Virus record (IMG/VR): IMGVR_UViG_3300009183_000095
Span: 666-64,665 of that record
Reading direction: 5' to 3' (one strand)
Length of the DNA: 64,000 bases
Source of the DNA: a virus
Lineage: Duplodnaviria; Caudoviricetes
The notes under the pieces are model-generated. The model did not search any database. It saw only the letters and a program-made list of their open reading frames with translations, and had not been told where the DNA came from. This document shows, piece by piece, positions 20,906 through 31,896 of the stretch. Each line of letters opens with the position of its first letter. Position 1 is the first letter of the stretch. Position numbers and translations under genes: made by a program.

Positions 20906-21871
20906 TTACGCTTGTGCTAGCTTCTTTTCTTTTTTAAGTTGTCCTACATCTGCGGTAGCCGATGCACCAATCTGCGCTAGATCGATTAATGAACCACCAA
21001 ATACATAACTACCAACGTGCTGTAGTTTCATCCAAGGACAGAACCATACCTTACAACCCATCTTCTCTACATTGTAACAGAACATATAGTCCTCAGATAG
21101 ATAGCGCTTCGAAGCTGTTTTTTCAGCAGTTAGTAACAGCTTGGCTAGTTCTTGAACTCCTTCAGACTTACCTTCAGCTACATCGGTCATAATTTTATGA
21201 AGAGCTTCTGGGCTATAACCTCTATCGATGATACAGTCAAAGTAGGCCATAATCTGTCTAGAGCCATCAAAATGTTCTGTACGAACATGATCAGGTTTAT
21301 ATTTTTGATTAGGATACACTTGATCGTATTTTGCAAAAACAGACTTCTTAATCATCATAAAGCCTGTACCAATTTCCATCACCTGTACTGGCTCTCCAAG
21401 AGGAATCTCTCTTTGACCTGATGCAGGATTAAAGACATAATCACCAACGAAGTTTTCAAGCTTGTTAGGATCTTCATCTGCGAAACCCTTATCAACAGCG
21501 TGCTTGATCTTCTCCCATGAAATACATTTCTTAGGATAAGGTCCTCCAATAACATCGTAAGGGCTATCATCGGTCTGCATTGCCATCATAGCAATAACAT
21601 CTTGCGGATTAAATCCAATATCACTATCAATGAACATCAAGTGAGTGGCATCACTTCGAATAAATTCATCCACACAATAGTTACGTGCACGAGTAATTAA
21701 TGACTCATTAAACAAATAGTATAGTTGTAGAGGAATACCGTACTTGGCACAAAAAGCAGATAAGTCTGCTACCGAGCGAGTATAGAGACCAGCACATTGG
21801 CCGCCATACATCGGTGTGGCTACAAATAATTTTTTCTTCTGTAGCTCTTCAATATTAATTTCTAGTTGCAT
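20906..21871 (-). CDS. GT-A fold glycosyltransferase-like protein
   Basis: LFVATPMYGG, ESLITRARN, LMFIDSDIGF (DXD), GTGFMMI, YLSEDYMFC. Confidence 0.75.
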   Translation of the reverse strand: MQLEINIEELQKKKLFVATPMYGGQCAGLYTRSVADLSAFCAKYGIPLQLYYLFNESLITRARNYCVDEFIRSDATHLMFIDSDIGFNPQDVIAMMAMQTDDSPYDVIGGPYPKKCISWEKIKHAVDKGFADEDPNKLENFVGDYVFNPASGQREIPLGEPVQVMEIGTGFMMIKKSVFAKYDQVYPNQKYKPDHVRTEHFDGSRQIMAYFDCIIDRGYSPEALHKIMTDVAEGKSEGVQELAKLLLTAEKTASKRYLSEDYMFCYNVEKMGCKVWFCPWMKLQHVGSYVFGGSLIDLAQIGASATADVGQLKKEKKLAQA

Positions 21872-22370
21872 GCTCTACTCCATATTTTTTATCGTGTTGT
21901 TTATTAATGCCGTAGTCACCATCATAGGATGAAAGAGCTTCAGCGTCGAAAAGTAAAAATTGACCAATTCGTGTGCCCTTCTTGATACGAGCAGGACCAA
22001 TAGTCACATGTAATACACCTGCCATTACTCCGTGATAACCCGAATCATATAAGCCAGATGTAATGAATAATCCATTTCTATTTAAAGTAGAACGAGTAAT
22101 AACCCACCCTGCTTCATTCTCACCCACCTTAATAACGTTCTCCATAACAATTTCATAACTTCCTACTGGAAGGAAAAAATAGCCGGAAGTATCGGGAGTC
22201 ATCTCGAAAGACGTACCTCGATGTTTTTTGTGGTCGTTGGAAATTTCAAAAGGATCGGTATTGATAACAAAGACTTTATCTAGTCTAAGATCTACCGCAT
22301 TGGGCTGGCTGTCGCCATCTAATATATTAGTAAGCTCTGATCTTGAATTAAGACCAAGTATGTGTTTCAT
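21855..22370 (-). CDS. trimeric dCTP deaminase/dUTPase family protein
   Basis: QPNAVDLRL, RSTLNRNG, YDSGYHG, RIGQ; likely start MKHILG at 22370. Confidence 0.85.
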   Translation of the reverse strand: MKHILGLNSRSELTNILDGDSQPNAVDLRLDKVFVINTDPFEISNDHKKHRGTSFEMTPDTSGYFFLPVGSYEIVMENVIKVGENEAGWVITRSTLNRNGLFITSGLYDSGYHGVMAGVLHVTIGPARIKKGTRIGQFLLFDAEALSSYDGDYGINKQHDKKYGVEHATRN

Positions 22371-22374
22371 TAAG

Positions 22375-23004
22375 TCATTCTCCAAAATAATAAGGATTTT
22401 CAACTGTCTTAAAAGCATAGACAGGTTCCATAGTGTTGTCAAGGAACTTCATTCTAATTACATTATTAGGTTGAGTCGGTTGGCTACCATCGAACTTAGT
22501 CGATGAAATATTTAGCTCTTCGTCCACGAACATCGGGGATATTTCATTTCTAAATAAAAATAATTTTCTTTCTTTTTGAAGTAGACAGCTAAAGGTACCG
22601 TCCATTTCGTTAAGCGCGCTCCAGCCCCTACTAAGATCTACTAGCATGATAAGGGTATCCCAGTTAATATAAGCTGGATATTTTTCTGCCCTCAATTTCT
22701 CAATTACAGATGCTTTAATAATCCCGTTATGCCACAAATACCATCCGTTCAATATAGCTGGATGTATGGAGGTTGTATCTTTCGTATCAGAAGTAGGAGC
22801 TTGTACGTGCACAATTCCATAATAATACTCAGGTACATCGATTTTATCTAGATTAATGGGACCAAGTTGCTGAGATACAATATTTAGTGTACCTGTACCG
22901 TAGTTAAATAAAGAAAAAGAATGGGAGTGTTGTCCTCGATAAGAATTGAGTTCAACTAACTCCCTAAGTTTTTTAGTATTTTTAGACCCTACAATAGCAC
23001 ACAT
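22375..23004 (-). CDS. stand-alone class II (Ntn) glutamine amidotransferase
   Basis: N-terminal MC nucleophile (MCAIVG), YRG, HP, WHNGII. Confidence 0.8.
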   Translation of the reverse strand: MCAIVGSKNTKKLRELVELNSYRGQHSHSFSLFNYGTGTLNIVSQQLGPINLDKIDVPEYYYGIVHVQAPTSDTKDTTSIHPAILNGWYLWHNGIIKASVIEKLRAEKYPAYINWDTLIMLVDLSRGWSALNEMDGTFSCLLQKERKLFLFRNEISPMFVDEELNISSTKFDGSQPTQPNNVIRMKFLDNTMEPVYAFKTVENPYYFGE

Positions 23005-23507
23005 TAGTCTTTACCTTGAATAAATGCTTGAACGGCTATTATAGTAGCTTTTGGTTCAATATGCAAGTGCCCATTTCCTCCTTGCTGAATGAACTTATGA
23101 ATGACATCTACAGTATCATCAATCATGAATGATTGAGAGTTAGCGTATCCAGATTTAAACCGTCTTCCTGGAACTGTAACAACCGGATATTCAATATTGT
23201 TTTTCAAGCACCATTGCATCTTTTGTAATGATACCTCGGTATGTCTGTCAAAGCCTCCAGTAGAAGTAAGAATACTTTTTTGGATGCTTTTAGGTGTTTG
23301 ATGTAAGTAGTCAAGCAGCTCGTCCATACCGGGAAACTTATCTAGATTTTTAAATCCATCATCATCTACAAATTGATGCCAGTACTTAGTATAGAGACCC
23401 TTTTCTTTTTGGTCTCTTACCTCTTTAGGAGAGATGCCAAATCTCTCTTCATATGTCTTTTCAAAATTGGATAAGACACCATCCATATCAATATAAATTG
23501 TTCTCAT
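23004..23507 (-). CDS. HAD-family 5'(3')-deoxyribonucleotidase-like protein
   Basis: IYIDMDGVL, ILTS, K..W, MIDD. Confidence 0.85.
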   Translation of the reverse strand: MRTIYIDMDGVLSNFEKTYEERFGISPKEVRDQKEKGLYTKYWHQFVDDDGFKNLDKFPGMDELLDYLHQTPKSIQKSILTSTGGFDRHTEVSLQKMQWCLKNNIEYPVVTVPGRRFKSGYANSQSFMIDDTVDVIHKFIQQGGNGHLHIEPKATIIAVQAFIQGKD

Positions 23508-23516
23508 ATTTCACCA

Positions 23517-24281
23517 TTACGTAATAAGATAACTCCACGGGATTTGTTTAGCATAAGGAATGGGATCAACCATCTTTGCTTTAATAAAATTCTGAATACG
23601 CTCACTACACGAAGGACACTCTCCGCAACTCTCACCTACTGGTGTAGGATTATAGCAGGTCAATGTGAACTCAAGTTTAACATCACCAATCTCTTTAGCA
23701 ATCTCAATCTCTTGATACTTAGACAATAGACTAAAAGGAGCTTCTAGTTTTACTTTATGAGTCCTATTTTGATTAGCAACTGCGTTCATCGAGTCAACAA
23801 ACTTCTGAGTAGTATCCCAGTACCCATACTCATCATGTACTTGCAATCCAGTAAATACATGAGAGGCTTTATTAGCTTCAGCGAAAGAAAAAGCCAGAGA
23901 GTTAAGAATCATATTCCTAAACGGTACATAAGTCTTTGGCTGAGGATCTCCTAACACATCTTTAATAGTAGGCATCGCAACATTAGTACCACCAATATTA
24001 GCAGACATGTTTTTAGCAATTTCACCTAGAATATTAAGATCGAGAATCTTATGCTCAATGCCAAGATACTCACAAGTAGAAGCTGCCATCATCAACTCTC
24101 GTTTCTGCTTCTGCCCATAATCATATGATAGAGCAAACACTCGTTTATTACCATACTTCTTAGCCAAGATATAAGTCATAATGGTACTATCCATACCACC
24201 AGACAATACACTAACTACGTTTTCGTTTGTTTCCGGTAGACTTTGCAGAGCTTGTTGTAGGTTCATATTTTTCTCCATCAT
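23517..24281 (-). CDS. queC: 7-cyano-7-deazaguanine synthase QueC
   Basis: SGGMDST, YDYGQ, YVPFRNMI, TCY...CGECPSC. Confidence 0.95.
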   Translation of the reverse strand: MMEKNMNLQQALQSLPETNENVVSVLSGGMDSTIMTYILAKKYGNKRVFALSYDYGQKQKRELMMAASTCEYLGIEHKILDLNILGEIAKNMSANIGGTNVAMPTIKDVLGDPQPKTYVPFRNMILNSLAFSFAEANKASHVFTGLQVHDEYGYWDTTQKFVDSMNAVANQNRTHKVKLEAPFSLLSKYQEIEIAKEIGDVKLEFTLTCYNPTPVGESCGECPSCSERIQNFIKAKMVDPIPYAKQIPWSYLIT

Positions 24282-24549
24282 CCTTTAATTCTTGTCCGTA
24301 TAATTTAATTTCATATTCTGCTCTATTTACTTCTTTTATTTCGTAAGTATTGTTAAGTGACTCTTCAAACTTCTTCCACGAATTAAGATTGTACCCTCTA
24401 CATGGTATTTCGTAAGAAAACCCATCTGACATCTTAGCCGTCATTATAAAATACGCGTCCCGATCAACTTTAGGTTCTTGTTTTTTATTTGTTGTCGTCG
24501 GCGTGATTATAGGCTTTTTGTTTGAGGGCTTCAACATAGATTGCGGCAT
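24211..24549 (-). CDS. hypothetical protein (start uncertain)
   Basis: Fills the gap between queC and the upstream gene; the true start may be downstream of 24549. Confidence 0.5.
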   Translation of the reverse strand: MPQSMLKPSNKKPIITPTTTNKKQEPKVDRDAYFIMTAKMSDGFSYEIPCRGYNLNSWKKFEESLNNTYEIKEVNRAEYEIKLYGQELKDDGEKYEPTTSSAKSTGNKRKRS

Positions 24550-24700
24550 CCAATAACTCCTCCTGTAAGTGAATAAGCCATTGTAATGTAGATAAGTCGT
24601 CTCTTTCTGTTGTTACACCGTACTTCTTATACCCTGCTTCCATTCTAGTTTTGAGCATGTTGGATACGCGTTGTACATTGGGGTCGATCCATTTTTCCAT
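24485..24700 (-). CDS. small all-alpha NTP pyrophosphohydrolase-like protein (MazG superfamily)
   Basis: G.KKYG...DL...WL.HLQEELLDAAIY with an EExxD metal motif. Confidence 0.55.
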   Translation of the reverse strand: MEKWIDPNVQRVSNMLKTRMEAGYKKYGVTTERDDLSTLQWLIHLQEELLDAAIYVEALKQKAYNHADDNK

Positions 24701-25629
24701 TATTGTCTCGCAGTCTTAGTACACGGTATGTTATGAGATGCAATATTAGCAATACCATCAATTAAGAAAGTATTAGAAGCTCGTATAGGATTAATATCAA
24801 TACCACCACGGCGAGTATATAAACAAGTAACCAATAGTTCGGTAGGCTCTAACATATCATGTAATCGTTTATAGATGCATTCACAAATCTCTTCATGAAA
24901 ATGATTCTCTCGTCTCATAGACACAATATACTGCAATAGAGACTCAGGGGTAACTGTTTTCTTACCTCTAATATGAATATAAACATCGCCCCAGTCCGGC
25001 TGATTAGTTACTCTACAGTTCGATCGCAACGAAGAAGATCTCCACTTATCAGCATAGCGCCCGGAGCTGTCTACTACTTGTAGTATCTCTGGGCTCTCGT
25101 TATAGTGAGAAAAGTCAATCTCTTCTACATTAACAAAATCTTCTAGGGAAACAAAATCACCATTCAATGGTCTTTGAGTATCAAAGTCACCGGTAAATAT
25201 ACTACAATGTACTTTTCCTCCAACTGCTTCACTCATATGTCTTTCAATGGTCTCCTGAACGTTATACAGACCATCCCAGGTCCACATCGTCTTTGCCATA
25301 TTATAAGAGTTTAAATAAAGCTTAACAGACTTTGACTCAACAATATTAGGAGTATCAGAGCTATAAGCGAACTTAAGCCAGCCAGAGACAGGAAAGCCGT
25401 TAACCATAAGAGTGGAAAACTCATAAGCGTTCCATGCATCTGCTCCAACAAACGGAAGAGATTCCTCTTCAATATCATACTGCGTACGATTAAGTTTGCG
25501 CGGTACAGCAACCAAAAGACTTGCATCGACCTCATCAGGTGTGACATATGGCTTAACAATAGACCCATCTCCTGCCTTTCCTAAATGAACAGAAACTAGT
25601 TTATTTAATTCTTCTTGATTATCACTCAT
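24700..25629 (-). CDS. queF: NADPH-dependent preQ0 reductase QueF (bimodular type II)
   Basis: QueF motif VESKSVKLYLNS, catalytic LRSNCRVTNQPDWG, FHEEICE, YTRRGGIDINP. Confidence 0.95.
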   Translation of the reverse strand: MSDNQEELNKLVSVHLGKAGDGSIVKPYVTPDEVDASLLVAVPRKLNRTQYDIEEESLPFVGADAWNAYEFSTLMVNGFPVSGWLKFAYSSDTPNIVESKSVKLYLNSYNMAKTMWTWDGLYNVQETIERHMSEAVGGKVHCSIFTGDFDTQRPLNGDFVSLEDFVNVEEIDFSHYNESPEILQVVDSSGRYADKWRSSSLRSNCRVTNQPDWGDVYIHIRGKKTVTPESLLQYIVSMRRENHFHEEICECIYKRLHDMLEPTELLVTCLYTRRGGIDINPIRASNTFLIDGIANIASHNIPCTKTARQ

Positions 25630-26162
25630 TAGCGTCCTTCCAAAAAATTCATAATTGTTGTAACTCTATCTCTAACAGTACCTTTAACTCGTTGCATAGG
25701 TAATTTTCTTTTTTCTATCTGATGTTCAAATAGATCAGCAATCTTATCTCTAAACTTCGTATCAGTACTTCTCGTTCCATCATCCACAATATCAAATTCA
25801 GGTTCAATATAAAATACATGATCGTACATCGGCCATACTTTATCAAATACTTGATTAACATACTCTAACGTTGGCTGATTAATATGAGCAAGATTATACA
25901 GGTAGTAAGAATAAACTACCCCATCTAATACAGTACGATCAGTAAGCATATCGTTATGAAGAAAGACATTAACAATATGCTCATTCATAATTAAACGCTG
26001 AGTATTATCATTACCTTGCTCATTGATCGGTAACCCATACCCCTTCACCCTGCGTGTTACTTCATCGCAGATAGTATATTTTTCAAATAATTTTTCCGAG
26101 CGCAAAGCATTAAGTAGAGTAGTTTTACCTACCGACTGCGCCCCACTAATTCCAATTCTCAT
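25629..26162 (-). CDS. NadR/AAA_28-like P-loop nucleotide kinase
   Basis: GAQSVGKTTL, DRTVLDG, DDGTR. Confidence 0.8.
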   Translation of the reverse strand: MRIGISGAQSVGKTTLLNALRSEKLFEKYTICDEVTRRVKGYGLPINEQGNDNTQRLIMNEHIVNVFLHNDMLTDRTVLDGVVYSYYLYNLAHINQPTLEYVNQVFDKVWPMYDHVFYIEPEFDIVDDGTRSTDTKFRDKIADLFEHQIEKRKLPMQRVKGTVRDRVTTIMNFLEGR

Positions 26163-26709
26163 TTAATAGTAACCTCGTCTTTATAAAATCAACCCATAGT
26201 TGTATGGATATAAATTTTAGTTTAGTACATAGTGAGTCAAGCGTCTCACCCTCTTCAATGCTGCATGTTTGAATACGTAGAATCTGCCCTGCGTCTACTT
26301 CAGGTACTACACTATGAATTACAGTTCCAGTGGAGGGAAGTTTTAGATCTAAAGCTTTCTGTTGAGGATCTTTACCTTTAAGAGATGGGTAAGTTACTAT
26401 GTCGCCTGGATGTCCGTTGAATATATTGAACTCATTACAAATATGTTCCGGTAATATTCTAAGATATCCGTGAAGAGTAATAATCCAAGAAGCTTCTATT
26501 TCGTACCTAACAAATGACATTATATCATCATGCTTTAACTTTACAACATTGTAAGTTTGCATATCTGGATGCCATTTACTCTCATCCATATTATTTGTAA
26601 GAACTATAGACGGTTGGTATCCTAGGTTATCACTTATACCTACAATCTCCGATCCAGTCTGACTGAATAAAGCTACCCAACCGGCCTTACGTATAACATG
26701 GTTACCCAT
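26146..26709 (-). CDS. PurN-like formyltransferase (candidate DpdN-type preQ1 formyltransferase)
   Basis: LFSQTGS, HGYLRILP, NGHPG, GTVIH.V..EVDAG (catalytic N/H/D retained); likely start 26709. Confidence 0.8.
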   Translation of the reverse strand: MGNHVIRKAGWVALFSQTGSEIVGISDNLGYQPSIVLTNNMDESKWHPDMQTYNVVKLKHDDIMSFVRYEIEASWIITLHGYLRILPEHICNEFNIFNGHPGDIVTYPSLKGKDPQQKALDLKLPSTGTVIHSVVPEVDAGQILRIQTCSIEEGETLDSLCTKLKFISIQLWVDFIKTRLLLNENWN

Positions 26710-27490
26710 TAACAATCGCTCTAAAGCACTCGACGTTATAGGTAATTCTGTTGAGAGTGTCATTATCAACCTCGCTATTAATCATAGTATAAAGTTTCTG
26801 AGAAGGTTTATCCTCTAGACCCTTATCACCATTATATCTTATTCCTTTTAATCCTGCAACTACTGGATTTGACGTATCAATAGAATCAATCCAAGTATAG
26901 CCTCTATATGATTCAAACTCCTGAGGTAGTCCACATCCAAGTAGGTGATGTGGCTTGTCTTGATTAATGATATCATTAGCTAACATATAGTGAATGAGTG
27001 CATCTCGCCCGTACATGTAATGATGAAACTTAGTAGGTAGTTTACCATTGACATCTTCATTTACAAAGAAAGAATAATCAAACGAAATAGCTATCTTATC
27101 AACATAAGATTCAATCTCTTGATAGCACCAAATAATTTCGTCTAAAGTTTTGCCTTGCACCACACCAATACATTGACCCGGTAGATCATGTAGCCAATTC
27201 TTAACGTTAGCAACTGTCTTTTCCGCTCCCTCTAACACATCGGGAATAATAAAAGCAGTAGGATGTAGATATTCGATCCACTTACAGTACTTGTTTTCAT
27301 CAAATGCTTCGCCGAGTTCAAAGATAGAGTTATCTAAAATAATTTCACGACCTTTATTCTTTGCCTTTACAAACAGATCTCGATATTCTTCACTCTCTTC
27401 AAACAAGTGAACTAGGGCATAATCATAATCAGTAACTTCCTGTATGCGAGGAAAAATAGAGATGGGGGCTTCGTGGGCAATCTTAATCAT
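26702..27490 (-). CDS. divergent TGT-fold transglycosylase (DpdA-like)
   Basis: IILDNS, IPDV, GVVQG, HHLLG and SIDTS occur in TGT/DpdA motif order; no C-terminal Zn site; embedded in the que cluster. Confidence 0.7.
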   Translation of the reverse strand: MIKIAHEAPISIFPRIQEVTDYDYALVHLFEESEEYRDLFVKAKNKGREIILDNSIFELGEAFDENKYCKWIEYLHPTAFIIPDVLEGAEKTVANVKNWLHDLPGQCIGVVQGKTLDEIIWCYQEIESYVDKIAISFDYSFFVNEDVNGKLPTKFHHYMYGRDALIHYMLANDIINQDKPHHLLGCGLPQEFESYRGYTWIDSIDTSNPVVAGLKGIRYNGDKGLEDKPSQKLYTMINSEVDNDTLNRITYNVECFRAIVNG

Positions 27491-27881
27491 TAAAATTATA
27501 CTCCTGTTGTTTTCTTACACGTTCACGTTCACGTTTTTGATAGTACTTTGTACCGAGAAATTCCATCTTTTGAATAATCTCGTTTACCTGCTCTTTGGAT
27601 AGCATAACAATTTCAGTTACTCCACCAATTTTTTCTTCAATCCAAAGATTCTTAGGATAGAATGTTTTGAAGGTCTCTTCAACCCCCTTCATCTCATCCA
27701 ATGGGCCAGCAACAGTTTTCATGATTTTAATTTCCCACTTGTCATACTGCTCAGGCTCATACTTGAACCTCTCCGCAGCATCCCAATTGGATGTATGACC
27801 AAACTTATAGAAGTCTATCTGTTTGGTTTCCTTGTTCGTGAACCTTGCAAGATACATCTTGCCTATCTTCTCCGTCATCAT
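27483..27881 (-). CDS. GIY-YIG/T5orf172-like hypothetical protein
   Basis: MYLARF...FYKFGHT...ERF...E pattern; start after GAGG SD. Confidence 0.5.
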   Translation of the reverse strand: MMTEKIGKMYLARFTNKETKQIDFYKFGHTSNWDAAERFKYEPEQYDKWEIKIMKTVAGPLDEMKGVEETFKTFYPKNLWIEEKIGGVTEIVMLSKEQVNEIIQKMEFLGTKYYQKRERERVRKQQEYNFND

Positions 27882-28122
27882 AACTACCTCTCTCACGTTG
27901 TTCAAATTTCTTTTCTTGTATTGTTTTCTCGCCCCAAACACGTCTAGGGTTTGAACATAATAAACATTTAGGATTACCGCAATTCATTGCATGATGTTTA
28001 GCAAACTTATGAGGTTCTTTTACAGGTACTCCAAATTCTTTTGCAATCTTTACCTGTCTTTTTATTTGCACTTCCTCTTGATGGAGACGTTTGCTGTGTT
28101 TTTGTTTATCTTCTTCATGCAT
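27805..28122 (-). CDS. conserved hypothetical protein with Cys/His motif
   Basis: KHHAMNCGNPKCLLCSNPRR; AGGAG SD. Confidence 0.65.
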   Translation of the reverse strand: MHEEDKQKHSKRLHQEEVQIKRQVKIAKEFGVPVKEPHKFAKHHAMNCGNPKCLLCSNPRRVWGEKTIQEKKFEQRERGSYDDGEDRQDVSCKVHEQGNQTDRLL

Positions 28123-28748: not shown

Positions 28749-29459
28749 TTATAGGCCTTTTCCATACGATTGCTGTAGCGCTATGTTATCGAAAAATTCT
28801 TTCTTTACTGACGCGTCATGAAATTGACCGTGTAGTACTGTCGTTTGAGTAAGTGAACTATGAGCCATAATTCCTCGGTTCTCACAACACCCGTGAGTAG
28901 CTTGGACATATACACCCACATCCTTACTATCGGTAGATGCAATTATTTCTCTAGCAATGTCGTTGCAGAGCTCTTCCTGTAACGTTCCACGGCGAGCACA
29001 CCATTGAGCGATTCTAGTATATTTAGATAAGCCAATAAGTTTATTAGCGGCGATAATCCCGATGTATGCCACACCAGATACAGGCTGGTGATGATGACTG
29101 CACATAGAGCGCAATTCGCTACGGACAACTAGCATACCTTCGTAACGGTCTTGCGAGTCATTAGGAAAAGCGGTTGCTGTAGGTCTGTGGTCATATCGCC
29201 CTGCCATTATTTCATTAAAGTACATTTTAGCAAGGCGCTTGGCTGTACCTCTACTATTAGGATCGTTTTCACGGTCAATTAATAATACATCCAAAACTTT
29301 TTCAAACGCTTCTGTAGCTTCTGTAATTAGTGTCTGTTTAGTAATATCATCACCAACATACTCACTAATATTATCTCCAGCCCAGAAGCGCTTACCATCA
29401 GATTTCATTCGTTTGCGAATAACTTGTGATAGATTTTTTTCCATAATACCCTCAGTCAA
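28749..29459 (-). CDS. folE: GTP cyclohydrolase I
   Basis: SMCSHH, IGLSKYTRI, ARRGTLQEEL, HGCCENRG. Confidence 0.96.
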   Translation of the reverse strand: MTEGIMEKNLSQVIRKRMKSDGKRFWAGDNISEYVGDDITKQTLITEATEAFEKVLDVLLIDRENDPNSRGTAKRLAKMYFNEIMAGRYDHRPTATAFPNDSQDRYEGMLVVRSELRSMCSHHHQPVSGVAYIGIIAANKLIGLSKYTRIAQWCARRGTLQEELCNDIAREIIASTDSKDVGVYVQATHGCCENRGIMAHSSLTQTTVLHGQFHDASVKKEFFDNIALQQSYGKGL

Positions 29460-30000
29460 TTAGATTCTCTTTCCACTCACGGTGACCTTCTCTATATGCC
29501 ATATTGCTAATAGTCTCTCTTACCTCTACTCTATAGCACCAAAGGCGTTCTGCTTCACTAGGTCCCCACATATCTGGAATATATACTCCATTAACGTATC
29601 GGTAGAGCATATCAGAAAGACCTTCACAACCAAGCTTTGGAAGAATAGTTAACTTAGCCATCTTTTTATCTTGCAAAAGTTTAAACGTTTCTAACTCTGG
29701 GTCATCTTCAGCTACTAATAAAGTATGATCAAACTGATCTTCTAAAATTCCTTTTAGTTCTTTTAGACCGCCATAATCAGCAGCCCAGTTGCGTACATCA
29801 AGATCATCAGTACCAAAAAAGAATCTCATAGAAAAACTATAACCATGAATTAAGTTACAATGGGAGTCTGCTCTCCATTGACGATATGCACATGGAAATG
29901 CATTGTGATATTCTTTAGTACTCGTATACTTGTATTGTACTGGGTGACGTAAATACTGTCTATGGTCGCTTACTACTGGTGTTCCAAAATCATCTGACAT
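29452..30000 (-). CDS. queD: QueD / PTPS-family synthase (atypical His ligands)
   Basis: HCNLIHGYS, DYGGLK, FDHTLL, VEVRET; position in the cluster. Confidence 0.85.
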   Translation of the reverse strand: MSDDFGTPVVSDHRQYLRHPVQYKYTSTKEYHNAFPCAYRQWRADSHCNLIHGYSFSMRFFFGTDDLDVRNWAADYGGLKELKGILEDQFDHTLLVAEDDPELETFKLLQDKKMAKLTILPKLGCEGLSDMLYRYVNGVYIPDMWGPSEAERLWCYRVEVRETISNMAYREGHREWKENLID

Positions 30001-30024: not shown

Positions 30025-30438
30025 TTATACCTTTTCCCACCAAAAGTCTATCCAATTGGTTATGATTTGTCTATCAATCATCCATCCCCAATAATTCGGC
30101 TTAAATGATTGACCGGAGTTATAAACGAGGCTTGCAGTGTCTACATGACCATGAATAGCTATAATTTCCTGCATCGTCTGACCTGTATCAACTATATCAT
30201 CAACGAGCAATATTTTATCGTTTAACTTAAATCCTAAATCAATTACAGTGGGTTCATTCTTTGACCAATGTAACGCTTGAAAGGGGATGTTCATTTTATG
30301 GCTTAATGCCACAGCAGGTATTACACCCCCTCTTGCAATACCTACAATACAATCATATTTTTTACCTGATTTTTCTACACTCTCAGCTATTCGATTTACA
30401 TCACGTGTAAATGCTTCAAAGTTATAAAATAAGTTCAT
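30025..30438 (-). CDS. type I purine phosphoribosyltransferase (Gpt-like)
   Basis: IARGG..PA, PRPP motif ILLVDDIVDTGQT, C-terminal WIDFWWE. Confidence 0.9.
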   Translation of the reverse strand: MNLFYNFEAFTRDVNRIAESVEKSGKKYDCIVGIARGGVIPAVALSHKMNIPFQALHWSKNEPTVIDLGFKLNDKILLVDDIVDTGQTMQEIIAIHGHVDTASLVYNSGQSFKPNYWGWMIDRQIITNWIDFWWEKV

Positions 30439-31292
30439 TAAGTACCCCATTCATTTTTAAAGAGAGGCACTTGTAGTCTATCAGAATATCTGAAACCTTT
30501 TTTCATTGCAAGATCTGCAACAGCTCTGTTGTTCATATGGTATACAGACTCTACACCACCAACAGGCATCAAATAAACCGGTCCATTAAAGCCATAGTCA
30601 CGATATGCCTCAACCGCGCGACTTGCTTCATCTGCATCTTCTTGTGTTGCTACTACAAACTTCAGATAGGTATAGCCAATGCCACTATAAGCGGATACTA
30701 CCTTTGGTTGAATTGCTTCTTCCCATGACTCACCTGATACAGATAGTTTAGGTGATACGGAGAAGGTAAGGCTGCTATATTCTCTATCGTTAACGAAAGT
30801 CCATTCGTTAAGATATTCTTTAAGAGAATCAGAGAGAGGTTGAGTACCGTTAGTTTCAAACGTTAACTCTTTTAGACCCCTCATACATGGCTGTAGTAGA
30901 AGGTCAGGGTATGCACGTTGCCAACCCAGTAGAGGTTCACCGCCGGTGATTACGAGATGTTCGTCTTTCCATTCCTTGTGCGGTAGAAGATCAACAATTG
31001 AAGTGGCAAGACTATCAACAGGTACAACAGGGCTAAGATGCTTAAAGCGCACATCCCAGCTAGCATAACTATCACACCCGGTAGATACCAAAGGGAGTGC
31101 TTTATACTCTGTGTAATTTTCGGGGTTGATTTTAAGGTGCTCATCACTTTTTTGTCCTTTCGGCATACCAAAACCTGAGCATGTGAAGTTACATCCAAAT
31201 GTTCTTAGGAACACGGACGGGACGCCCATATAGCGACCTTCACCTTGAATGGAGTAGAATAACTCCGCGACTTTAAGTTTCTGCAATCTCAT
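30438..31292 (-). CDS. queE: 7-carboxy-7-deazaguanine synthase QueE (radical SAM)
   Basis: ELFYSIQGEG, FLRTFGCNFTC...GCDS, VITGGEP, ETNGT, SPKL. Confidence 0.93.
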   Translation of the reverse strand: MRLQKLKVAELFYSIQGEGRYMGVPSVFLRTFGCNFTCSGFGMPKGQKSDEHLKINPENYTEYKALPLVSTGCDSYASWDVRFKHLSPVVPVDSLATSIVDLLPHKEWKDEHLVITGGEPLLGWQRAYPDLLLQPCMRGLKELTFETNGTQPLSDSLKEYLNEWTFVNDREYSSLTFSVSPKLSVSGESWEEAIQPKVVSAYSGIGYTYLKFVVATQEDADEASRAVEAYRDYGFNGPVYLMPVGGVESVYHMNNRAVADLAMKKGFRYSDRLQVPLFKNEWGT

Positions 31293-31896
31293 CTCCTAGT
31301 TTACGTGGAAGGGCACGTGATAAGTTATGTAGGCTACCTACAGCTCTTTTCACTTGTCTGTCTCGAATTTTTTTCTGTCTTAACGCTCTATCTAAAAGTA
31401 GTTTATGAGCTCTTGTAGTATAGTCTATTCCATTTAAATGATCCAGCTCATGTAGGATACACCTGGCTGTCATACCAATAAACTTCTCCGTTACAGTCTC
31501 TCCTGTGTACTTGGTATAACGTACTTTGATAATAGCTGGGCGTTTAATTTTAACAAAGAACCCTGGGCGAGATAAGCACCCCTCCTCTAGGGAATTCTCT
31601 TCCATGGATGTATCAATTAATTTAGGATTAAACAATGCAAGAGGGGCTTGTGAATGTAATACAAACACACTATAAGGAATGCCTACTTGATTGGCTGCTA
31701 ATCCTAGCCCGTTATACTTTGACATAGTAGCAATTAAATTATTTGCTAACTCGGCAGGGTTCATAGGAGGGTTTTTAAAATCAAATCTCTCCGTAGGCTT
31801 ATGCAGTATAGGATTAGTACAAGGTAGTACATCGTAAATAGTTGGCTCCGGAGGCTTGGGAGCATCTACTATTTCATAATTCATTGTTTCAGTCAT
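31273..31896 (-). CDS. def: peptide deformylase
   Basis: GLGLAANQVG, EGCLS, HELDHLNG. Confidence 0.95.
   Translation of the reverse strand: MTETMNYEIVDAPKPPEPTIYDVLPCTNPILHKPTERFDFKNPPMNPAELANNLIATMSKYNGLGLAANQVGIPYSVFVLHSQAPLALFNPKLIDTSMEENSLEEGCLSRPGFFVKIKRPAIIKVRYTKYTGETVTEKFIGMTARCILHELDHLNGIDYTTRAHKLLLDRALRQKKIRDRQVKRAVGSLHNLSRALPRKLGDEIAET

Follow-up and report, generated by a model that had tools for sequence, protein, structure and literature searches.

A DpdA3-subfamily transglycosylase in the 7-deazaguanine operon of an uncultured T4-like phage, and comparative evidence on whether it acts on DNA or on a free deoxyguanosine nucleotide

At what level does a phage replace its guanine: in DNA that has already been replicated, or in the nucleotide pool before replication? 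The question is raised by a gene in a 64,000-nucleotide (nt) stretch of DNA from a Caudoviricetes virus (Duplodnaviria), positions 666 to 64,665 of IMG/VR record IMGVR_UViG_3300009183_000095, hereafter the window. The record is a virus contig with 7-deazaguanine synthesis genes, a 64.7-kb fragment estimated to be 36% complete. Beside those genes, on the minus strand at 26702..27490, lies dpdA3, which encodes a 262-amino acid (aa) protein of the DpdA3 subfamily of 7-deazaguanine transglycosylases, reduced to a bare TGT-type barrel. Comparative data support the view that this enzyme takes its deoxyribose from free deoxyguanosine, as nucleotide or nucleoside, and that duplex DNA is not the donor, with a rough probability of about 0.5. 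Between a free deoxynucleotide or deoxynucleoside and double-stranded DNA (dsDNA), we lean slightly toward the former.

The open reading frame (ORF) is real, and all five motifs that the original prediction had listed in TGT order can be located: ILDNS at residue 51, PDV at 83, VQG at 111, HLLG at 182, and SIDTS at 203. The start codon is ATG, with AGGAG about 13 nt upstream. tRNA TGTs carry a C-terminal CxCxxC...H zinc subdomain. As had been remarked, this zinc site is missing: neither a C.C..C nor a C..C motif occurs in the 262-aa protein, and its five cysteines are scattered (residues 69, 107, 122, 186, and 255), with only C122 nearly invariant in the family. An acidity first judged by eye is upheld by calculation, which gives an isoelectric point (pI) of 4.87 and a net charge of -16.7 at pH 7. 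An overlap with the formyltransferase gene was also correctly noted, and its length depends on which start codon is used. It is 8 nt (ATGGGTAA) if the formyltransferase begins at the ATG at 26709, and 68 nt if it begins at the first TTG (26769) of the longest ORF. The ATG is probably the true start and the 68-nt overlap not real, because, in homologues and in natural fusions, similarity to the formyltransferase sets in only at about residue 6-8 counted from that ATG. At its other end, the dpdA3 ATG overlaps the stop of an upstream 152-aa ORF by 8 nt (ATGATTAA); translation of dpdA3 is coupled to that of its neighbor at either end.

Membership of this gene in the DpdA3 subfamily is secure. The subfamily was named in 2023 by Cui, Hutinet et al. 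(PMC10516641) on phages that the protein matches here. A tblastn search of 50,697 phage records matched 29. The closest is the DpdA of Flavobacterium phage immuto, annotated as DNA guanine transglycosylase, at 53.2% identity (100% coverage, E 2e-76). Fourteen records of Campylobacter phages of the CP220 type follow at 36-37% (CP220 itself 37%, E 1e-40), with Chryseobacterium phage MA9V-3 at 28%, Bacillus BSTP-type phages at 27%, and Cellulophaga phages of the phiST type at 24% (E 5e-8 for phiST). Coverage is 92-100% for the immuto, CP220, and phiST matches. In BFVD, the predicted structure of the protein matches the phiST founding member M4SLA5 (TM 0.85/0.86, E 7.8e-18). These identities and the phiST model bear out the DpdA3-like half of the original prediction; its other half, a new class, is ruled out because of the 53% identity to immuto DpdA3.

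The best PHROG of the protein is phrog_19058 (function unknown; 1.4e-45), with a faint match to the queuine tRNA-ribosyltransferase PHROG (0.004). No Pfam (E <= 0.01) or NCBIfam model matches it, and PF01702 (TGT) has no match at E <= 1 anywhere in the whole 64.7-kb record, with 14/14 control genomes matching. Relatives abound: 4487 of 4658 candidate proteins match DpdA3 at E <= 1e-3, as do 1605 cluster representatives at 50% identity, and at least 534 IMG/VR loci carry a match. In a prokaryote survey using one genome for each of 185,579 species, we identified only 15 DpdA3 loci, all on metagenome-assembled contigs. DpdA3 is nearly confined to viral contigs.

An AlphaFold2 model built from an 81-sequence alignment (pLDDT 96.6, pTM 0.92) is a compact eight-stranded barrel, and it is of the TGT type that had been anticipated. 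All of the top 50 Foldseek matches listed from the PDB are TGT or ArcTGT (E 5e-8 to 2e-6), and VIA-align places 231 of 262 residues on TGT barrels with a Z score of 17.6 and a root-mean-square deviation (rmsd) of 2.9 A. The 81 sequences, 34-54% identical to the window protein, share 12 invariant positions, which include E58, P83, R162, H182, L184, G185, and P209 as well as three aspartates, D53, D84, and D205, each present in 81/81. In bacterial DpdA, aspartates D95, D130, and D256 serve as acid/base, base-recognition residue, and nucleophile, respectively (PMC10164549). We propose the same roles, in the same order, for D53, D84, and D205.

This assignment draws on several residue comparisons. 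The best PDB sequence match, a weak one, is bacterial DpdA 7UI4 (E 0.12), in which HLLG...SIDTS falls on HLLG...SIDS and D205 falls on chain residue D276. D205 would then correspond to the Asp256 nucleophile if the 7UI4 chain carries a 20-residue tag, which we assume. An hhalign comparison of the DpdA3 (alignment A1) and DpdA1 (alignment A2) profiles (probability 2.2, E 0.022, 49 columns) sets ILDNS on FLDSGAFS and serves only to place the first aspartate, D53. F57 stands four residues past D53, like F99 past D95 in bacterial DpdA, and the suggested equivalence of D84 follows from order and spacing. It counts against the mapping that the alignments to DpdA and to DpdA1 are individually weak and that the Pfam TGT model has no match; the two alignments are consistent with one another and with the fold. 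The lack of any Pfam or NCBIfam match would also suit a TGT relic that has decayed or is not catalytic and plays no part in DNA modification. Given the high-confidence fold, the 12 invariant positions with all three aspartates, the tight translational coupling on both sides, and the thousands of full-length relatives, we consider such a relic extremely improbable.

Which base might the enzyme insert? Together with DpdA3, the window encodes a DpdN-type formyltransferase, QueF, and the preQ0 pathway, which is the gene set of the fdPreQ1 system. In the minus-strand operon, genes for FolE, QueD, a phosphoribosyltransferase (PRTase), and QueE lie upstream of dpdA3. Those for DpdN, an AAA_28 kinase-like protein, QueF, a 71-aa ORF, and QueC lie downstream, and beyond QueC follow deoxyribonucleotidase-like HAD, glutamine-amidotransferase (GATase)-like, and DCD/dUTPase-fold proteins. 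The order FolE-DpdA3-DpdN-kinase-QueF is found in immuto and in most of 80 related IMG/VR loci. Among these 80 loci, truncated ones counted too, blastp detected DpdN in 75, QueF in 71, FolE in 66, the kinase in 52, the PRTase in 35, and the 71-aa ORF in 23. The DNA of immuto contains formyl-preQ1 and gives no deoxyguanosine (dG) peak, according to PMC10516641. Because the cluster is syntenic with that of immuto, we predict that formyl-preQ1 fully replaces G in the DNA of the window phage. DNA of this kind should therefore resist most restriction enzymes.

As reported in PMC10516641, all three DpdA3 phages that were measured (CP220, phiST, and immuto) have their G completely replaced, and other DpdA types replace at most 30% of G. 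The same paper states that DNA was left unmodified when DpdA3 was tested in E. coli. Before DpdA3 was found, a modified-dGTP route had been proposed for Campylobacter phages, and Hutinet et al. (2019) could not rule out "undetected 2'-deoxyribosyltransferases" (PMC6884629). Exchange on a free nucleotide would make DpdA3 that undetected 2'-deoxyribosyltransferase. In the literature searched, we found no paper that determines the substrate of DpdA3 or tests the free-nucleotide idea; the word "kinase" occurs nowhere in the main text of PMC10516641, whose supplements may list neighboring genes.

Potentially addressing the question, we identified a recurrent association of DpdA3 with kinase-like proteins. 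Among the 122 DpdA3 loci with enough flanking sequence, 81 (29 of 45 clusters at 70% identity) have a small P-loop kinase-like ORF on the same strand within 1.6 kb. The same count gave 0/71 at loci of 9g-type DpdA1, and ORFs at distances above 3 kb from DpdA3 gave a background of 10/671. A strict Walker-A pattern missed the AAA_18 kinase of phiST, and a jackhmmer search with three AAA_18-type seeds gave 9 more. In 6/6 lineages examined (the window and the cultured phages immuto, CP220, phiST, MA9V-3, and BSTP12), a kinase-like gene either adjoins DpdA3 or has no more than DpdN and a single small ORF between it and DpdA3. One protein (P0396) is an outright fusion, with an AAA_28 kinase at the N terminus (residues 1-177) and DpdA3 behind it (190-465). 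DpdA3 is also fused to other enzymes of small molecules: to QueF in two proteins (P0392 and P0393) and to the DpdN formyltransferase in four (P0170, P0192, P0394, and one at locus L259).

Enzymes that could cleave deoxynucleoside triphosphates (dNTPs) form a second set of neighbors. Genes resembling dNTP hydrolases occur near DpdA3 in four unrelated folds: DCD/dUTPase (the window, MA9V-3, and L259), MazG (phiST), PRA-PH (immuto), and HD (CP220). The window operon also encodes a deoxyribonucleotidase-like protein and the PRTase.

The barrel itself points in the same direction. In bacterial DpdA the surface for dsDNA is formed by the insertions Ins1 and Ins8 (PMC10164549). Only about 31 residues of DpdA3 lie outside the shared barrel core, and the modeled bare barrel appears to have no room for DNA-binding insertions. 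Its beta-to-alpha loop face is net negative in 81/81 family members (median -11) by a crude count from the DSSP string with no comparator. Overall acidity, which had been considered as evidence against DNA binding, was rejected. It does not discriminate a free-nucleotide from a DNA substrate, because DNA-acting DpdA1 proteins of the 9g type are acidic too: median pI is 5.24 for 253 DpdA3-like proteins and 5.70 for 120 such DpdA1 proteins, 86% of which fall below pI 6. Complex prediction for the DpdA3-kinase pair (alignments A1 and A5) scored 0.00 against a mark of 0.32 and is not evidence either way.

Taken as a pathway, these genes could work as follows. A dNTP hydrolase, here the DCD/dUTPase-fold protein, would convert dGTP to dGMP, and DpdA3 would swap its G for a 7-deazaguanine base. 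The AAA_28 kinase would phosphorylate the product again, the phage polymerase would incorporate the modified nucleotide, and the Gpt-like PRTase may return the released guanine towards GTP. The PurN-like DpdN, whose gene overlaps dpdA3, would carry out the formylation, and the end product would be a genome in which G has given way to formyl-preQ1. The activity, substrate, and product that we infer would make DpdA3 the first enzyme of the TGT fold to swap bases on free deoxyguanosine, whether as nucleotide or as nucleoside. Together with an enzyme that cleaves dGTP and a kinase dedicated to the task, DpdA3 would constitute a pre-replicative pathway that makes 7-deazaguanine dNTPs and excludes dGTP. 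For this fuller proposal the rough probability is about 0.45.

Several points weigh against a free-nucleotide substrate. To our knowledge, every characterized enzyme of the TGT superfamily acts on a polynucleotide. No kinase-like ORF lies nearby in 41 of the 122 DpdA3 loci (16 of 45 clusters), and one close subclade has simply DpdA3-DpdN-QueF with the kinase missing. The DpdA1 control is narrow and represents one lineage, because its 71 loci form only 5 clusters. Instead of a kinase, the P-loop protein could be a helper ATPase comparable to bacterial DpdB, and the genes for the DCD-like, nucleotidase-like, and PRTase proteins could belong to the normal supply of dNTPs. The fusion proteins could be frameshift artifacts, since each rests on one or a few metagenome gene calls. 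The loop-face charge count was made without three-dimensional coordinates, includes the catalytic Asp, and, with the DpdA1 model (alignment A4) at a pLDDT of only 53.9, lacks a control. Finally, the only paper on DpdA3 proposes that the base is inserted after replication (PMC10516641).

According to that post-replicative account, DpdA3 binds newly replicated duplex, or transiently single-stranded, DNA and swaps G for preQ1 or formyl-preQ1, and the P-loop protein is either an ATP-dependent helper like DpdB or an unrelated enzyme of nucleotide supply. Homology of DpdA3 to DNA-acting DpdA and to RNA-acting TGT, with all three aspartates kept, fits this account, as do the proposal of the original authors, the loci with no kinase-like ORF nearby, and the acidity of DNA-acting DpdA1 proteins. 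Bacterial DpdA requires its ATPase partner DpdB (PMC10164549), and DpdA3 often adjoins a DNA polymerase gene (BSTP12 and loci L259, L261, and L262), like DpdA1 of phage 9g. What it explains less well is the complete replacement of G in all three DpdA3 phages measured, against 30% or less for DpdA types acting on DNA, and the lack of DNA modification by DpdA3 in E. coli (both from PMC10516641). Nothing in the 262-aa barrel corresponds to Ins1 and Ins8, and the account gives no role to the kinase fusion, the recurrent dNTP-hydrolase-like genes with their four folds, the deoxyribonucleotidase-like gene, or the PRTase. We regard exchange on DNA as a serious possibility, at somewhat less than even odds.

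The PRTase raises a further alternative, in which synthesis of the modified nucleotide bypasses DpdA3. Here the 7-deazaguanine base would be joined to phosphoribosyl pyrophosphate (PRPP) by the PRTase, a kinase and ribonucleotide reductase would take the product to the dNTP, and DpdA3 would only clear residual G from DNA or modify tRNA. Deazapurine nucleoside antibiotics are assembled by a PRTase from PRPP, and a purine-type PRTase lies inside the operon, in 35/80 close loci, in immuto, and at locus L104. It is missing from 45 of the 80 loci (by blastp, many of them truncated), and none is annotated in the CP220, phiST, MA9V-3, and BSTP12 stretches; the constant element is DpdA3. The best match of the PRTase is to xanthine/guanine phosphoribosyltransferase, which fits guanine salvage equally well, and neither the zinc subdomain nor the other additional elements of tRNA TGTs are present in DpdA3. 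This route is improbable.

The remaining genes of the operon, all on the minus strand, are described here from dpdA3 downstream. The dpdN-like formyltransferase of the PurN family (26146..26709, with the longest ORF reaching 26769) matches Formyl_trans_N at 8.5e-9 and PurN at 3e-10, the latter below cut-off. It is followed by the small P-loop nucleoside/nucleotide-kinase-like protein (25629..26162), which matches AAA_28, of the NadR ribosylnicotinamide-kinase type, at 2.2e-15 and the "thymidylate kinase" phrog_2107 at 6.5e-25. Next is queF (24700..25629), for a bimodular NADPH-dependent preQ0 reductase (QueF_N 9.9e-29, QueF 6.3e-20; TIGR03138 4.4e-69, below cut-off). The conserved 71-aa ORF between queF and queC (24485..24700) matches five PHROG families of unknown function (best 1.3e-17, four at <= 1e-10) and no Pfam or NCBIfam family, so neither collection backs the "MazG-like" label given to it earlier. 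The preQ0 synthase gene queC (23517..24281; QueC 1.1e-54) precedes that of an HAD-type 5'(3')-deoxyribonucleotidase-like protein (23004..23507; phrog_2643 1e-27; no Pfam family at E <= 0.01). A stand-alone glutamine-amidotransferase-like protein (22375..23004) matches phrog_12378 (function unknown) at 3.6e-41 and GATase_7 at only 0.0068; it adjoins the QueC region though QueF is also encoded, and it is found in 28/80 related loci. Last is the candidate dNTP hydrolase of the dCTP-deaminase/dUTPase fold (21855..22442; DCD 3.1e-13, dUTPase 5.1e-6; PRK02253 dUTPase 1.2e-23, below cut-off), the true start of which is probably an internal ATG.

Upstream of dpdA3, the 152-aa ORF of unknown function (27483..27941) has no Pfam family and a weak PHROG match only. 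It occurs in 14/80 related loci and carries the motif GKMYL...FYKFGH...ERF. Then come folE (28749..29459), for GTP cyclohydrolase I (GTP_cyclohydroI 2.4e-37), and queD (29452..30000), for CPH4 synthase (PTPS 7.3e-13). The small purine-type PRTase (30025..30450) matches Pribosyltran at 5.4e-15, and its match to xanthine/guanine phosphoribosyltransferase is PRK09177 (2.2e-10, below cut-off). The radical-SAM CDG synthase gene queE (30438..31292) has a Radical_SAM match of 3.5e-4 and a position syntenic with that of QueE in immuto. A peptide deformylase gene (31273-31896, minus strand; Pep_deformylase 6.2e-36) lies directly upstream of queE and is syntenic in 28/80 related loci.

Neighborhoods of DpdA3 in other contigs are varied. 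At the distant loci L114:6490-6996, L131:5448-5945, and L151:2804-3334, and also at L092, L110, and L137, the direct neighbor of DpdA3 is a conserved protein of 162-177 aa that is not a kinase and carries the motif LNYNQFRWWR...NGDFDYS. Three of these proteins were scanned and matched no PHROG family and no Pfam family over cut-off; one had a sub-threshold YezG-like match (0.0018). In one distant clade (L137:7777-8259), a homologue of pyrimidine-dimer DNA glycosylase (Pyr_excise 2e-16) is encoded directly downstream of DpdA3. One DpdA3 protein (P0162) has a DUF3310 tail. The C-terminal tail of protein P0228 gave best scores of 0.83-0.84 in an atlas look-up, with one cluster 33% DUF1599, a lead that was not used. 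On a contig from a Lachnospiraceae-labeled metagenome-assembled genome (L259:4290-8823), a family A DNA polymerase, an AAA_28 kinase, a 454-aa DpdA3::formyltransferase fusion, a DCD/dUTPase-fold protein, and a Vut_1-family transporter are encoded in a row. We take the Vut_1 family to include the preQ0/preQ1 importer YhhQ. If the transporter is of the YhhQ type, the L259 phage may import the base instead of making it.

Overall, the window gene adds one more DpdA3, from an uncultured T4-like phage, in a cluster that constitutes a complete, small, and testable set of enzymes. The free-nucleotide mechanism proposed for it is not in print in the literature searched. If correct, exchange on a free nucleotide would be a new type of reaction in the TGT superfamily, would explain why DpdA3 phages alone reach 100% guanine replacement, and would offer an enzymatic route to 7-substituted 7-deaza-dGTPs.

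Among known systems the nearest is immuto, in which genes for a PRTase, FolE, DpdA3, the formyltransferase, an AAA_28 "thymidylate kinase", and QueF follow the same order as in the window. The two differ in the hydrolase near DpdA3, of the PRA-PH/MazG type in immuto and of the DCD fold in the window, and in the junction of dpdA3 with dpdN, which holds a small ORF in immuto and is a direct overlap in the window. The founding members of DpdA3, CGPG_00065 of phiST (dDG genome) and gp056 of CP220 (dADG genome), have the same compact barrel as the window protein (TM 0.85 for phiST). As in the window, a kinase-like gene (directly adjacent to DpdA3 in both phages, of the AAA_18 type in phiST) and a dNTP-hydrolase-like gene (MazG type in phiST, HD type in CP220) are nearby. 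The base inserted differs from the one predicted for the window, and there is no QueF or DpdN.

Bacterial DpdA of Salmonella Montevideo (PDB 7UI4) shares the HLLG...SID(S/T) nucleophile block with the window protein (E 0.12, as above) and the same proposed double-displacement chemistry (PMC10164549). Its deposited chain has 436 residues, against 262. Unlike DpdA3, it carries Ins1 and Ins8, whose positively charged crescent accommodates dsDNA, and it depends on the ATPase DpdB (PMC10164549); it modifies less than 0.1% of G (PMC10516641). tRNA TGTs (Z. mobilis TGT and P. horikoshii ArcTGT 1IQ8) share the (beta/alpha)8 core (Z 17.3-17.6, rmsd about 3 A, 225-231 residues) at 12-14% identity. They differ from the window DpdA3 in having the zinc subdomain, C-terminal RNA-binding domains, and a PF01702 match.

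In the reaction proposed, DpdA3 would resemble the nucleoside 2'-deoxyribosyltransferases, which exchange bases on a free deoxyribosyl donor via a covalent carboxylate intermediate. The resemblance is functional only, and the folds are probably unrelated. No nucleoside 2'-deoxyribosyltransferase fold is among the top 50 structural matches listed, all of which are TGT barrels. We know of no description of base exchange on a free nucleotide by a TGT-fold enzyme. In the T4 hydroxymethylcytosine pathway, a dCTPase, a dCMP hydroxymethylase, and a deoxynucleoside monophosphate kinase work together. Z-genome phages use MazZ, PurZ, and DatZ (PMC12783734). Unlike in these pathways, the modifying step proposed here would be base exchange by a TGT-fold enzyme. 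Like them, and by functional likeness and not homology, the proposed system would combine a dNTP hydrolase, a modifying enzyme that acts at the nucleotide level, and a kinase to achieve complete replacement of a base.

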